Below the pieces are notes generated by a model. It saw only the letters and a list, made by a program, of their open reading frames with translations, was not told the origin of the DNA and searched no databases. 64,000 bases of DNA, taken from the sequence record ON286975; one strand, written 5' to 3'. This document shows positions 39,895 to 64,000 of this stretch, one piece after another (the first letter of the stretch is position 1; each line of letters begins with the position of its first letter). Position numbers and translations under genes: made by a program. Source of the DNA: Escherichia phage I29.

Positions 39895-40440
39895 CATACT
39901 CTACCTGTCTGATCAATTTCCCCAACCACATCCTCCATATTTTCCCTGTCTGTACTACCCCTGCCCCGCCGTGAGTCCCGTCATATCTGGCTTTCCAGCA
40001 AATATCACACCCACAAATATCATTGCCTGAAGAGGGTTTCATCTCATAATATATGCCTTACCTGAAGAGCGCTTCATACACCACGTAATTTTTTTTTTAA
40101 TTGACCCCCTCCCCGCCGCTGGAGAGGTTGGCTTTTCCCACACAGACCTGAAGAGTCAGCCAGAAATATCTGAACAGGCCCAATTCTACCACGATTTTGA
40201 CCTGACCTACAGGAGTGCTGCCAGGCGGACGAAATGGGAATCATTCTCATTCTTATAACAATTCTCAAATATCGAGGCAGTGAGGCAAATTAATAGGTGA
40301 GGCCGTTCACACAATGGCACAACATTTGCAACCTATCTTGTGGGAGTGAATGAGAATACCTATCATTGTGAGAATAGTTATCATTACGGGCAATTTAACA
40401 TAATACCCATTATGCGCACCGCTGGTGATACATACAGGGA
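39895..40440. repeat. direct repeat copy 1 (546 bp)
   Basis: Identical to 40489-41034 as far as compared; track ORFs inside the two copies translate identically. Confidence 0.85.
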
Positions 40441-40543
40441 AAATATGGAGGATGTGGTTGGGGAAATTGATCAGACAGGTAGAGTATGCATACTCTACCT
40501 GTCTGATCAATTTCCCCAACCACATCCTCCATATTTTCCCTGT
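40434..40543. repeat. 110-bp perfect palindrome at the junction of the two repeat copies
   Basis: 40441-40488 is the exact reverse complement of 40489-40536, and the match extends 7 bp further on each side; centre gtatg|catac. Confidence 0.85.
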
Positions 40544-41034
40544 CTGTACTACCCCTGCCCCGCCGTGAGTCCCGTCATATCTGGCTTTCCAGCAAATATC
40601 ACACCCACAAATATCATTGCCTGAAGAGGGTTTCATCTCATAATATATGCCTTACCTGAAGAGCGCTTCATACACCACGTAATTTTTTTTTTAATTGACC
40701 CCCTCCCCGCCGCTGGAGAGGTTGGCTTTTCCCACACAGACCTGAAGAGTCAGCCAGAAATATCTGAACAGGCCCAATTCTACCACGATTTTGACCTGAC
40801 CTACAGGAGTGCTGCCAGGCGGACGAAATGGGAATCATTCTCATTCTTATAACAATTCTCAAATATCGAGGCAGTGAGGCAAATTAATAGGTGAGGCCGT
40901 TCACACAATGGCACAACATTTGCAACCTATCTTGTGGGAGTGAATGAGAATACCTATCATTGTGAGAATAGTTATCATTACGGGCAATTTAACATAATAC
41001 CCATTATGCGCACCGCTGGTGATACATACAGGGA
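40489..41034. repeat. direct repeat copy 2 (546 bp)
   Basis: Period 594 bp relative to copy 1. Confidence 0.85.
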
Positions 41035-60147: not shown

Positions 60148-60511
60148 TCATCAGGTCTGCCATAGCGTCACCCACGAAGAGAACAACCACATCGTTGACA
60201 GCGTCAGCATCATCTTTGTTGACGTTGCTGAATTTAGGACACACAGCAATGATCATATAGACACCGTTACCCACCTGAACTGTCTGTGTGGTGCACATCA
60301 TGGCTGTATTTGTGCCTTCTTTGAAGGCGAAGCCTTGAAGACGCTCCTCTAAAGTGTTACCGGTAGATTTCAGAAGCGCCAGCTCGTCCAAGGCATAGAT
60401 GATATCTCCTGAAGTTAGTGTTGCCTTGCCATCAGACACCATAATCACTCCATCAGCACCGTCAAGCTTAGAGGCTTCAAAGATATCAATATCCCAAATA
60501 TTTTTCATCAC
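60119..60511 (-). CDS. hypothetical protein
   Basis: ORF in arm orientation. Confidence 0.4.
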   Translation of the reverse strand: MMKNIWDIDIFEASKLDGADGVIMVSDGKATLTSGDIIYALDELALLKSTGNTLEERLQGFAFKEGTNTAMMCTTQTVQVGNGVYMIIAVCPKFSNVNKDDADAVNDVVVLFVGDAMADLMNAGEAANED

Positions 60512-60840
60512 GCTTCCTCGTCGTCTAAGTAATCATCAAGAGAGGTGAAGATTTCACCGAAGTATTCTAAGATTTCTAGCTCACGTGTGGTGCAGAAAAC
60601 ACAGTCACCGTTGTCATCCTCGATAACGGCCTTTTTACCCAGCACATCTACTTCAAGTTTATCGTTCAACAGGACAGCTCCTGTGTAAACTTTGTCGGCT
60701 GTACAGTCCCGAAAAGCAGAATCCTTCTCCAGATAGTCTGGCTTAACCTTGGCTTTAATTCGTTGATATTGTTTAGTCATTGCTGTGGTCCCCTTTCGTT
60801 TTGATAGGGCCATTATATTAGGCCCCATCACTGTTGTCAA
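60508..60840 (-). CDS. hypothetical protein
   Basis: ATGA-coupled ORF. Confidence 0.4.
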   Translation of the reverse strand: MTTVMGPNIMALSKRKGTTAMTKQYQRIKAKVKPDYLEKDSAFRDCTADKVYTGAVLLNDKLEVDVLGKKAVIEDDNGDCVFCTTRELEILEYFGEIFTSLDDYLDDEEA

Positions 60841-60843
60841 GTA

Positions 60844-61098
60844 TTAATGTTCAGGTTTTACAAAAACTACTTCGTTAACAGTGCACCAGACAGAATCTCC
60901 TTCGTCATCTTTAAAGGTAAGGCACTGGGCTGAGTTTTCCAGCTCATCAATCTCTTCTTGTGATAAAGGAGCCCCTTCTTCCAAAAGGGCTTTTACTAAA
61001 GGGTTCTCACAAAACTCTGCTTCATAAATAGCACCAAGCGTGCAATCTTTAAAAGCTCGGTCATTTGCAACGCATGCTGGTTTCAACATGATTTTCAT
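60844..61098 (-). CDS. hypothetical protein
   Basis: GGAGA RBS. Confidence 0.4.
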   Translation of the reverse strand: MKIMLKPACVANDRAFKDCTLGAIYEAEFCENPLVKALLEEGAPLSQEEIDELENSAQCLTFKDDEGDSVWCTVNEVVFVKPEH

Positions 61099-61174
61099 TT
61101 TAGCAGTCTCCTCAATTATTTAAAAATCAACTCTCTGTTTGTGTGAAGCATCTTATATCTAATCTTACTTCTTG

Positions 61175-61573
61175 TCAATGACTATTTTCAATCAGCCACA
61201 CAGGGTCGAGGTAAATTTGTTGGCGTGTTGCCCAATGACAAACTTCATTGTACGTCTGAACCTCTTTGTCTGTCAATTCACGAATAGGCTCATCTATACC
61301 CTCATTTTTGTGGTAATCCCAGTCGGCATCGATTTCCCACAGCCATGACTTGTTGTCACCACGCTTACGCACACAGAAGTCACCAGGACGGCCTGCCAGT
61401 GCATTTAAGAACTCGTTCTCTGCTCGCTCCTGAAGAATGCTAAGGAGCAAAACGTTGGAGCATGACCGTAAAATATGCTTCAGCTCGCAGTCATCAATCT
61501 CAACTTCAATACGTTGTTTGACTGTGTGGGTACCTTTTACTAACATTCTACCTCCTCTATACAAACTCTGCAA
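61175..61573 (-). CDS. hypothetical protein
   Basis: ORF in arm orientation. Confidence 0.4.
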   Translation of the reverse strand: MQSLYRGGRMLVKGTHTVKQRIEVEIDDCELKHILRSCSNVLLLSILQERAENEFLNALAGRPGDFCVRKRGDNKSWLWEIDADWDYHKNEGIDEPIRELTDKEVQTYNEVCHWATRQQIYLDPVWLIENSH

Positions 61574-61751
61574 GTGTTGTGTTGTTCACTGCACCGCAGT
61601 AAATGGAGTATCCCAGCCCATTAGGGTGCAGAAACCACGGCGTGCCGAAATTATCTTTCACGTAGACATCGCCGTTGCTTGTAAAGGGCCAATATTCTTC
61701 ACCAAGGGTGAAATACCTACTCATACCCTCAGCCAGATACTTTACTTTCAT
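61557..61751 (-). CDS. hypothetical protein
   Basis: ORF in arm orientation. Confidence 0.35.
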   Translation of the reverse strand: MKVKYLAEGMSRYFTLGEEYWPFTSNGDVYVKDNFGTPWFLHPNGLGYSIYCGAVNNTTLAEFV

Positions 61752-61975
61752 AGGTCCTCTTCAACAGCTACAAACTTGGCAAGCAGGGTGGTTCCGTAGA
61801 TATGATACTCACCGTTTGCCAGATGGGAGATAAACCAGGCAATCCCTTCCTCGTCTTTAATCATCTTGTTTGCACGAGCTTTATCGTAATAAACCTCGTA
61901 GGTCTTTCCTTCTTTAAAGAATGACAGGTCTGTCATCTTTTCTTCTACAAAGGTAGCTTTAACCAAAGTCGTCAT
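61748..61975 (-). CDS. hypothetical protein
   Basis: ATGA-coupled ORF. Confidence 0.4.
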   Translation of the reverse strand: MTTLVKATFVEEKMTDLSFFKEGKTYEVYYDKARANKMIKDEEGIAWFISHLANGEYHIYGTTLLAKFVAVEEDL

Positions 61976-62289
61976 TGATCAGTCTCCTTCTTGTTAAGTC
62001 TGAATACTGCAATAATAGCATTCCCAAGGTGCAGTGTCAAATCATTTCCAAGATACCACAGCATTCCACGGTCATCTTTGATGAAAGGGTGACAATCTGG
62101 TGCCTTCCAGACATTGTACACTTTCCCAACCTGAAAGAAATCAGGCCCTGTTGGGATTTTAGTGCCTGGCCACACTTGAGATACCTGAACACACTCCACC
62201 TGCATAATAACAGGGATAGTCATGGATGTAAATGTTTTTGTTGGTTCTACTACCATAAAAGTCTCCTCTTTGCTCAACAACACTTCCAT
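61972..62289 (-). CDS. hypothetical protein
   Basis: Start trimmed to MEVLL to avoid overlap with polymerase exon 2. Confidence 0.35.
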   Translation of the reverse strand: MEVLLSKEETFMVVEPTKTFTSMTIPVIMQVECVQVSQVWPGTKIPTGPDFFQVGKVYNVWKAPDCHPFIKDDRGMLWYLGNDLTLHLGNAIIAVFRLNKKETDQ

Positions 62290-62305
62290 GTGTTGATAGT
62301 TTACA

Positions 62306-62659
62306 TTAGTGACAATCACCCCAATTACGACCACACAGGTATTCACCTGTGATCTGGAACGGGACGCCCATCATTTTAGAAGCTTGCCAGAAGCAATGCA
62401 CCACCATTTCACCCACAGGGCTCCAGATAAGTTCAAGCTTTCCGTCATCGTTCAGGATAGGATCGTACACCGTGTTTCCGTCTCTGTCAACCACTTCGTT
62501 TCCGTCCTCATCCTTGCGTGCCTTTTTGTACTTATGACCGTCGAACACATGAAGTTTGGCCTCCTGCTCTGCCTTAAATGCTTCCAGTTCTTCGATTGTG
62601 TCGAAGGTGTACACAGTCTTATACTTAGGCGTGTCAGGGACCTGAAGTTGGTACTCATC
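62306..62659 (-). CDS. DNA polymerase I family (family A), 3' exon
   Basis: Begins DEYQLQV, which completes an HDE motif with exon 1; ends GRNWGDCH like the Pol I C-terminus GENWDQAH. Confidence 0.75.
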   Translation of the reverse strand, partial: DEYQLQVPDTPKYKTVYTFDTIEELEAFKAEQEAKLHVFDGHKYKKARKDEDGNEVVDRDGNTVYDPILNDDGKLELIWSPVGEMVVHCFWQASKMMGVPFQITGEYLCGRNWGDCH

Positions 62660-63501
62660 CAATAGTTCAGGTAGGTCGTTAAGCTACCCCGCACCATTAC
62701 GTGCACAGCCATACGGTTTCCTGTATGGATCGGACTATCTCATTACCTTGTTACCAAGGCACCTCTCATTTCGACCGCACTTGCTGGCCTACTCTACTCG
62801 CTTCTTCACACCAAACTATGTTGGAGCTATGCTTTCGATAGTCTCTGAACGTTACTACCAGGTGTAGTTTTTAGAGATATGTTTCCACTGTCTTCTTTGC
62901 TTTATGGCTCTGACCGTCTCATAAGGATACCCAAGATCCCTAATCTCGCATTGTCGTAGACCACTCTGCAACAGTTCGCAAATCTCCGTTACCTCATCCT
63001 CGGTCAGCACAGCGTTGGCATTATACTCACCGACTGGCCTTACTCTGAGTTCATTATCGTAGGCGTGTTTGATATTTCCACCAGGGGTAGTCCATTCCAG
63101 GTTCCAGTGTGCATTGTTGTACTTATTTCCATCCTTATGGTTCACCCATGTGAGCTTTTCAGGATCAGGGTTCGGTACAAAGCATTCAGCAACCAAGTGG
63201 TGGACACCTTTTGTGCACTGCTTCCCCTCGATGAGCATGGTTACGCAAAGGTAACCTCTACCATTATCAAAACAAAACATTGTTGTATGATCACGTTTCG
63301 ATAAAGGTATTGTTCCATCATCAAACACGGTATACCCGTGATAATCAGCTGATCTAGCCATTTTAACTACACCCCTTTAGTCTTCGCTGCGGATTAGCAT
63401 ATTGAGCTTTTACCATGTTCAGGTGTAAAAGTCAACTTAGCCTTCCCGTCAATTAAAGAGGTTTTCGACGTGCATCACTGCACGAAGCCACAATGTTATT
63501 T
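62660..63501 (-). mobile_element. group I intron (~840 nt) carrying an HNH homing endonuclease ORF
   Basis: Core elements P aattgacgggaagg (63441-63454), Q aatccgcagc (63386-63395), R gttcagagacta (62839-62850), S gagatagtcc (62732-62741) on the minus strand; exon 1 ends in T, intron ends in G. Confidence 0.8.
62855..63361 (-). CDS. HNH homing endonuclease (intron-encoded)
   Basis: HHLVAECFVPNP...VNHKDGNKYNNAHWNLEW HNH motif; ORF lies between Q and R elements. Confidence 0.8.
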   Translation of the reverse strand: MARSADYHGYTVFDDGTIPLSKRDHTTMFCFDNGRGYLCVTMLIEGKQCTKGVHHLVAECFVPNPDPEKLTWVNHKDGNKYNNAHWNLEWTTPGGNIKHAYDNELRVRPVGEYNANAVLTEDEVTEICELLQSGLRQCEIRDLGYPYETVRAIKQRRQWKHISKNYTW

Positions 63502-64000
63502 ATGGTAATAGATAATACGACGAACACCTTCATCGTACCACCCACGCTTCACCATTTGATGGTGCATGAGTATCCCAACTAAGTCACACAACGATGCGCC
63601 GCCATTTTGTTGGTATGCATTAAGTAAAGAGTGTTTAGATCGGGTCCAGATAGCATGACCATCAAAAGAGTAGATAAACTTCTTACCCGTTGCTTCCCAG
63701 AATTTCTCCAGATCTTCTTTACGCCCCTTAAGACCAGGGTTGGCATCCCAGAGTGCATCGATTACCCTTTGTCCCAACTCTGGAGAGATGTCCAGCATAT
63801 CTGCAACTTTATCTTTTTGTGCCCCATACATAACCCCATACGTGATAGGTTTACCGTCGTTACGAGACACCTCTCTACCTGCTACTTTTGTATATGCCTC
63901 AGCATTGTTTTGGTGTGCGTCCCCGTTACTTACAACATCGTAATACAGGCCGTTGTCGAACTCAAAGGCACCCCAAGCCCCGATAAGCTGCTCTAAGTTG
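63502..64000 (-). CDS. DNA polymerase I family (family A), 5' exon, partial (continues past window end)
   Basis: Open frame to the window edge; motif-B-like RNDGKPITYGVMYG and NAYQQNGGASLCDL; ends ...RRIIYYH before the intron. Confidence 0.75.

Follow-up and report, generated by a model that had tools for sequence, protein, structure and literature searches.

A probably mobile group I intron with a nested HNH endonuclease gene in motif C of the DNA polymerase gene of Escherichia phage I29

The window, as the term is used here, is the whole stretch of DNA analysed: 64,000 nucleotides of Escherichia phage I29 (sequence record ON286975). The region of interest is 95-99% identical to rV5-like coliphages (Vequintavirus), and over positions 62200-64000 the closest records are Shigella phage CM1 (99.1% identity) and Escherichia phage APECc02 (98.7%). 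Near the end of the window lies a family A DNA polymerase gene in two pieces, with an endonuclease gene between them; every gene discussed here is read from the minus strand. A first-pass annotation, made from the letters alone, had proposed that the polymerase frame, broken off after RRIIYYH and resumed at DEYQLQV, is interrupted by a group I intron that encodes an HNH homing endonuclease. The break and the resumption were found, and the insert between them is exactly 62660-63501, that is, 842 nt read from 63501 to 62660. It is 100% identical to the insert of APECc02. The principal features are:

63502..64000, minus strand: exon 1 of the family A DNA polymerase gene, truncated by the window end (Pfam DNA_pol_A; aligned with T7 gp5 residues 490-653)
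62660..63501, minus strand: group I intron, assigned to type IA, 842 nt (full-length RF00028 match, intron-less alleles, covariation)
62855..63361, minus strand: predicted HNH homing endonuclease gene, 168 aa, I-HmuI-like (phrog_59, PDB 1U3E)
62306..62659, minus strand: exon 2 of the DNA polymerase gene, DEYQLQV...GRNWGDCH plus stop (contiguous with exon 1 in slur16 and JeffSchatz)

Exon 1 ends with ...GVRRIIYYH, the final CAT lying at 63504-63502 with its last base, U, at 63502; read on without splicing, the frame meets AAA TAA, a lysine and a stop. Exon 2 starts at 62659 with GAT GAG TAC (DEYQLQV) and ends at 62306 with ...GRNWGDCH and a stop codon, and the exon junction reads ...TAT TAC CAT / GAT GAG TAC.... 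The intron begins with AAAUAACAUUGUGG and ends with ...CUAUUG; the final U of the exon (63502) and the final G of the intron (62660), both expected from the initial reading, are present.

Natural alleles without the insert place the junction. The last 300 nt of exon 1 and the first 300 nt of exon 2, joined as a 600-nt query, gave one unbroken match in many Vequintavirus genomes, slur16, nom, JES2013 and JeffSchatz among them. In the intron-less JeffSchatz and slur16, ...TATTACCAT is followed directly by GATGAGTAC..., so that comparison with intron-less relatives defines the same CAT / GAT junction. The uninterrupted gene of slur16 measures 2778 nt, and the joined coding sequence annotated in phage AlexBoehm comes to the same length once the intron is taken out (3620 - 842 = 2778 nt).

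The protein that splicing would yield tells the same story. Its C-terminal fragment aligned with residues 490-658 of structures of T7 DNA polymerase, gp5 (E 4.5e-11), and the alignment spans the junction: ...RIIYYHDEYQL in the query stands opposite ...YMAWVHDEIQV in T7, with HDE matched. The claim that removal of the insert restores an HDE motif, in a protein ending in GRNWGDCH, is thus borne out. The Pfam DNA_pol_A score of the 283-aa fragment within the window, 32.5 bits, falls just below the cut-off of 34.3 because the polymerase gene is truncated by the window end. Motif C of family A polymerases contains a catalytic aspartate; as the spliced protein aligns with T7 across the junction, the insert lies between the His and Asp codons of that motif (HDE). 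Its excision restores an unbroken polymerase frame, as both the intron-less alleles and the gp5 alignment across HDE attest. An intein was considered as well, and is ruled out by the in-frame stop (AAA TAA) and by the ribozyme fold.

The insert carries the four conserved core elements of a group I intron on the minus strand, in the order first claimed: P, aattgacgggaagg, at 63454-63441; Q, aatccgcagc, at 63395-63386; R, gttcagagacta, at 62850-62839; and S, gagatagtcc, at 62741-62732. A scan with the Rfam group I model had been suggested as a check. At the default gathering threshold, a scan of the whole window gave no match; this is judged a false negative, as a relaxed scan folded the core and matched RF00028 over its full length (model positions 1-253) at 62710-63511, with 41.1 bits and an E-value of 8.9e-9 in a local scan, or 4.7e-7 over the whole window. 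The gathering threshold is 50 bits, and the alignment of the window copy is opened in P6, the place of the ORF, by an insertion of 510 nt. ORF-less alleles at the identical site exceed 50 bits: 91.2 for Avunavirus 19-1-2, 77.3 for Vibrio phage K460, 73.7 for JEP1, 72.5 for JLBYU08 and 64.7 for rV5. The cores of JEP1 and JLBYU08 are about 97% identical to that of the window, and the ORF-less alleles, at 254-329 nt, retain the full core. The intron-less locus of slur16 gave no RF00028 match, and the relaxed scan of the window found no second group I intron at E <= 0.01. The only other Rfam matches in the window are spurious, miRNA-like hits on a palindrome.

Comparison among relatives also supports the core. 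Twelve introns were assembled, from the window, rV5, JEP1, JLBYU08, Av-05, 19-1-2, SSE121, Csp-D17, A5-4, phiTE, CB7 and Vibrio K460; all 12 lie at ...Y-H / D-E..., in phages from at least five genera. The interiors of the ORFs were cut out, the cores were aligned with MAFFT, and the P1-P9.2 structure, including the P3/P7 pseudoknot, was scored. Standard pairs occupy 96.5% of cells, as opposed to 35-41% when the partners are slid by 1-3 columns; compensatory changes on both sides occur at 25/64 pairs, as opposed to 0-5 in the slid structures; the covariation score is 0.39, as opposed to 0.03-0.09 slid, and a score of 0.39 was reached by 0/500 shuffles. Compensatory changes fall in P2, P3, P7, P7.2, P8, P9, P9.1 and P9.2. 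RNAalifold, run with no structure supplied, recovers P1, P2, P3, P6, P7.2, P8, P9, P9.1 and P9.2. Comparative covariation supports nearly every helix. The elements of the ribozyme, from 5' to 3', are:

63488..63505, minus strand: P1 (Rfam alignment; 6/6 pairs invariant in 12/12 introns)
63469..63484, minus strand: P2 hairpin with GUGA loop (6/6 pairs with compensatory double changes; 100% of cells paired)
63456..63462, minus strand: 5' strand of P3 (partner 62761-62767; also found by RNAalifold)
63386..63454, minus strand: P4-P5-P4' domain including the P and Q elements and the 5' strand of P6 at 63387-63386 (Rfam alignment)
62851..63385, minus strand: P6a extension with the endonuclease cassette (duplex prediction, comparison with ORF-less JEP1)
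62839..62850, minus strand: R element, with the 3' strand of P6 (62850-62849) and the 5' strand of P7 (62845-62839, A62844 bulged)
62773..62838, minus strand: P7.1 (62838-62798) and P7.2 (62789-62773), peripheral stems typical of IA
62745..62767, minus strand: 3' strand of P3 (62767-62761) and P8 hairpin (62760-62745, GUAA loop)
62732..62741, minus strand: S element, holding the 3' strand of P7 at 62737-62732 (Rfam alignment, covariation)
62670..62728, minus strand: P9 (62728-62709, GAAA loop), P9.1 (62705-62690) and P9.2 (62688-62670)

In P1, exon CCAU (63505-63502) and intron AA (63501-63500) pair with the guide UUGUGG (63493-63488), and the wobble at the 5' splice site, U63502-G63491, is U.G in 12/12 introns. 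Just 5' of the guide, CAUU (63495-63492) could pair with GAUG of the 3' exon (62659-62656), a candidate P10 read from the sequence. Two pairs of P3 covary between CG and UA in 6/12 sequences. P4 is paired in 93% of cells, in an alignment that is imperfect here, as MAFFT misplaces a bulge. P7 is paired in 100% of cells, with double changes at 2 pairs; its pair G62843-C62733, which adjoins the bulged A62844, is invariant across the 12 introns, and pair 176-289 is switched from G-C to A-U. P7.2 is likewise 100% paired, with CG, GC and AU all occurring at one pair, and RNAalifold agrees; P7.1 is weaker (81% paired) and in relatives shrinks to a GAAA-capped hairpin. Double changes occur at 4/6 pairs in P8, 4/8 in P9, 1/5 in P9.1 and 3/5 in P9.2, the last three helices being 99-100% paired, with one P9 pair of the window copy an A.C. 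The terminal G of the intron precedes GATGA in 12/12 aligned introns. In the scheme of Michel and Westhof (1990), subgroup IA (IA2-like) is said to be marked by two extra stems, P7.1 and P7.2, that follow P7 and precede the 3' strand of P3; on these two stems the intron is assigned to subgroup IA, as other phage introns are.

Between Q and R, where an HNH ORF of 168 aa had been reported, there is indeed one at 63361-62855. It matches the phrog_59 family, 'HNH endonuclease' (PHROG 59; E 8e-38), and, over the HNH core, the structure of I-HmuI (PDB 1U3E; E 2.8e-5). His75, Asn87 and Asn96 are aligned in the latter match, with ...VNHKDGNKYNNAHWNLEW...GGN of the window ORF opposite ...VDHKDGNKDNNLSTNLRW...KIN of I-HmuI; the paper on that structure reportedly describes the roles of the HNH residues, a general-base His and a metal-binding Asn. 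Related endonucleases occur in 763 phage records.

The cassette occupies precisely P6a. ORF-less JEP1 has a 14-nt hairpin in place of the window's 528 nt and is otherwise the same, the cassette being the sole difference. The extension is closed by a duplex, predicted at -18 kcal/mol, in which ACUA..GGGGUGUAGU, the Shine-Dalgarno region of the endonuclease, pairs with ACUACACCU..UAGU, its last codons and stop; equivalent closing stems of different sequence occur in Av-05, SSE121, A5-4 and CB7. Judged from these predicted pairings, the stem probably holds the ribozyme in a compact form and reduces the translation of the ORF from the folded RNA. Comparable translational control has been described for the intron endonucleases of T4. 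A search of the coding strand in the part of the intron that precedes the ORF turned up neither a sigma-70-like promoter nor a terminator for the endonuclease.

The distribution of the insert is uneven. The junction was matched in 116 Vequintavirus-like records, 32 of which have the long, endonuclease-bearing insert; a spread sample of the remainder yielded 28 uninterrupted genes, 13 with an intron of about 276 nt and 2 with one of about 328 nt. Four states of one site (empty, 276, 328 and 842 nt) thus occur among phages whose exons are 95-99% identical. The 276-nt intron, found in rV5 itself, has no ORF, and its ends are like those of the window while its centre diverges; the 328-nt intron, also ORF-less, is that of JEP1 and JLBYU08. 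In further genera of the Vequintavirinae, an ORF of the same family (163 aa) lies in the intron of Seunavirus SSE121 and of Klebsiella phage K54_rec4, and Klebsiella phage vB_Kpn_K54_rec6 has a homologous endonuclease (56% identity) at the same intron position; Certrevirus phiTE and CB7 have the same intron with an unrelated HNH protein of 127 aa. The patchwork of alleles fits a history of homing, ORF loss and re-invasion. Exon co-conversion tracts beside the intron showed no clear pattern among the few loci compared. One 43-kb phage, ECO104 4-5-2, matched the 3' domain but has its intron at another site in the polymerase gene, and was set aside as not orthologous.

Much of this has precedent. 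In Pectobacterium phage CB7, introns of the polymerase gene, including the one with CB7_50, were found to be spliced, by RT-PCR and Sanger sequencing (PMC7344957). The intron with CB7_50 occupies exactly the same position (...TAT TAC CAT / GAT GAA TAC...) in a phage of the same subfamily, and its ribozyme is homologous: P1, P2, P3, P7, P7.2, P8, P9, P9.1 and P9.2 align and covary with those of the window. It differs in its shorter HNH ORF (127 aa), the start of which overlaps the P5/P4' core, and in a longer P5 extension; CB7 also has a second intron upstream in the polymerase gene. Closer still is AlexBoehm (BASEL, MZ501048), whose 842-nt intron lies at the same site, is 96.4% identical and presents no biological difference; its annotation gives a joined DNA polymerase CDS and a nested 'putative homing endonuclease', the intron boundaries having been set by comparative genomics (PMC8594841). 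CM1, APECc02 and FV3, the records that most resemble the window, enter the halves of the polymerase as separate CDSs. The paper on the rV5 genome, which reports introns for the terminase gene alone, gives the polymerase as 775 aa (PMC3606486). Two publications on retrons in which Vequintavirinae and introns both come up have no bearing on this element.

More distant phages have related arrangements. In the T7-like phages PhiI and W31 an IA2 intron is placed at 'site 881' of the polymerase (PMC3428280). T7-like K1F has an intron at the same motif C site (...TGG GTG CAT / GAT GAG TTA...) of the same host gene family, also group I (RF00028, 35.7 bits, full length) and with an internal HNH ORF; its likeness to the window's intron does not, however, extend beyond R and S, which are universal elements of the core, and its HNH protein is of another subfamily. 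Common descent of the two same-site introns is unsupported, R and S being all that they share. The polymerase introns of SPO1 and the Bastillevirinae are likewise group I introns in a phage family A polymerase, and the nicking endonuclease of the SPO1 intron, I-HmuI, belongs to the same family as the window ORF; phrog_59 is also the PHROG to which the HNH genes of the Bastillevirinae polymerase introns belong (PMC11878797). The SPO1-type site differs, at 674 in the fingers subdomain as opposed to 881 in motif C (PMC3428280), as do the hosts, which are Gram-positive; and nicking has been demonstrated for the SPO1-type enzymes, whereas the activity of the window enzyme is predicted.

One way to understand the locus, and the one in which we have great confidence, is as a mobile self-splicing group I intron of the IA type, with its HNH endonuclease, in motif C of the polymerase of an rV5-like phage (Vequintavirus). 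From the analysis as a whole we infer that it would splice in I29. The pre-mRNA would fold into the P1-P9.2 core; exogenous guanosine would attack just behind U63502, the uridine of the P1 U.G pair; exon 1, once released, would attack after the terminal G (62660), with P10 as guide; and the ligated product would encode ...YYH-DEYQ..., a polymerase of 925 aa. On unspliced RNA, ribosomes would halt two codons into the intron, at AAA UAA. The 168-aa I-HmuI-like HNH enzyme, for its part, may nick or cut, close to the insertion site, the polymerase gene carried by relatives in the same infected cell, and recombinational repair would then copy the intron, or the endonuclease cassette alone, into the cut relatives, thereby accomplishing homing. 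Meanwhile, pairing between the ribosome-binding site of the endonuclease and the 3' end of the same ORF would form the stem that closes P6a and would limit translation of the endonuclease.

A second perspective supposes that the insert is a remnant that does not splice, or a free-standing endonuclease cassette, and that the polymerase is translated as two separate chains, which then assemble. A case of this kind is reported for Aeromonas phage Aeh1, in which NrdA is split by mobE. For the present gene, the halves are entered as separate CDSs in many GenBank records, an in-frame TTG (the last three bases of the intron) gives a mechanical ORF of 118 aa for exon 2, and CB7 has one HNH-containing insertion, in another gene, that does not splice (PMC7344957). 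That TTG, however, has no Shine-Dalgarno sequence upstream, and the break would fall between the His and the Asp of catalytic motif C. A complete core upheld by compensatory changes across genera is not what would be expected of a dead remnant; the full core is present also in the ORF-less alleles of 254-329 nt, and the orthologous intron of CB7 splices (PMC7344957). A split gene is therefore unlikely, given the compensatory evolution of the ribozyme, a TTG without a ribosome-binding site, the break in a catalytic motif and the splicing of the orthologue; to the two-polypeptide account we assign next to no probability.

A milder departure accepts splicing and denies mobility: the HNH ORF would be inactive, or kept as a maturase, as a nuclease against competitors or as an HNH protein of the packaging type. 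The I-HmuI residue Asp74 is Asn in the window protein, the Pfam HNH_3 score is under its cut-off (19.8 bits as opposed to 24.8), and the ORF-less alleles indicate that the endonuclease can be lost without loss of the intron. Yet the protein retains the catalytic His together with both Asn, and its ORF, which has its full length, is 95-100% conserved across some 30 phage records. Its patchy spread among near-identical genomes fits recent mobility; the 56% identical homolog of vB_Kpn_K54_rec6 stands at the same position in the intron, and the 163-aa ORFs of SSE121 and K54_rec4 are likewise placed. An immobile intron is accordingly a very slight probability.

The mobile, self-splicing intron can be placed in a bolder scenario, in which the His / Asp junction is a hotspot of repeated homing, contested by several ribozyme lineages and at least three types of endonuclease, and in which the cassette moves alone between ORF-less introns (intron-to-intron homing). 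The lineages would be that of the window, that of rV5, that of SSE121 and CB7, and the unrelated one of T7-like K1F. Movement of the cassette alone is conceivable because enzymes of the I-HmuI type are able to nick intron-containing DNA. Forms with and without the ORF are both found in two genera, the ORF-less form with the same P6a hairpin; such pairs hint at movement of the cassette from intron to intron. The scenario as a whole is nevertheless doubtful. A further possibility is that splicing, being dependent on GTP and situated inside a catalytic motif, gates production of the polymerase.

Group I introns of this kind are common in phages. The intron of I29 is confirmed as real, ordinary and already known: it is annotated in close relatives, and splicing of the CB7 orthologue has been demonstrated. 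Its interest is low for these same reasons, and it opens no new question. The practical consequences lie in annotation and in material. Many public rV5-like genomes (CM1, APECc02, FV3 and rV5 among them) carry the polymerase as two or three separate genes; they should instead show one joined CDS of 925 aa, interrupted by an intron in which a homing endonuclease is nested; and ORF-bearing group I introns escape Rfam scans at the default gathering threshold. The locus also provides, in easily grown coliphages, a natural series made up of the empty site, two ORF-less ribozyme lineages and the endonuclease-bearing form, which is usable for studies of the homing cycle and of marker exclusion.

The last three bases of the group I intron, UUG, are in frame with polymerase exon 2; mechanical ORF callers therefore yield a 118-aa ‘gene’ (62306-62662, minus strand) that begins inside the intron. 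In rV5, FV3, JLBYU08 and others, this exon 2 product is recorded as a separate ‘DNA polymerase’ or as a hypothetical protein. A second spurious ORF, 62452-62712, crosses the same 3' splice site. Immediately downstream of the polymerase lies a series of small genes (60508-62256, minus strand), with tandem paralogues among them:

Tandem paralogue pairs downstream of the polymerase gene
60844-61098 and 60508-60840, minus strand: 30% identity, E 3e-8
61748-61975 and 61972-62256, minus strand: 29% identity, E 3e-7

Elsewhere in the window, overlapping mechanical ORFs cover a near-perfect palindrome of 130 bp at 40424-40553, whose two 65-nt arms are 95% complementary and abut without a spacer. Rfam matches to miRNA precursors on both strands at this position are spurious, being produced by the palindrome itself. 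The element is a candidate that could serve as an origin, or as a recombination or hairpin site.

At the polymerase locus, 14-16 GenBank ‘Campylobacter phage’ records (MG0656xx, with C. jejuni given as host) share 96-97% identity with the rV5-like phages of E. coli, a resemblance that suggests mislabelled or contaminant genomes.

Group I introns also interrupt the polymerase genes of other phages. In the Certrevirus examples, CB7 (locus L015, 950-1636) and phiTE (locus L011), a 127-aa HNH ORF begins within P5 and continues across the P4'/Q element (ATGGGTAATCAGCAGG), so that ribozyme core and coding sequence overlap. The polymerases of both phages are interrupted upstream by a second intron as well, and the polymerase gene has free-standing HNH genes as neighbours. 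Escherichia phage ECO104 4-5-2 (43 kb; OR844702, locus L018) has a group I intron with a 180-aa ORF at 846-1590 (51 bits). Its insertion site in the family A polymerase (...SASNP | ... QQLPRES) is not the one used by the I29 intron. The 3' domain of the ECO104 4-5-2 intron is ~77% similar to the P9-P9.2 region of the I29 intron.

At the I29 insertion site itself, rV5 (NC_011041, locus L004) carries an ORF-less group I intron of 276 nt (601-876; 64.7 bits), which goes unmentioned in the rV5 genome paper (PMC3606486). The rV5 and I29 introns are nearly identical over the first ~27 nt and the last ~70 nt; P2, P5, P6a, P7.1 and P8 have diverged. The rV5 intron looks like a mosaic in which two intron lineages have been combined.
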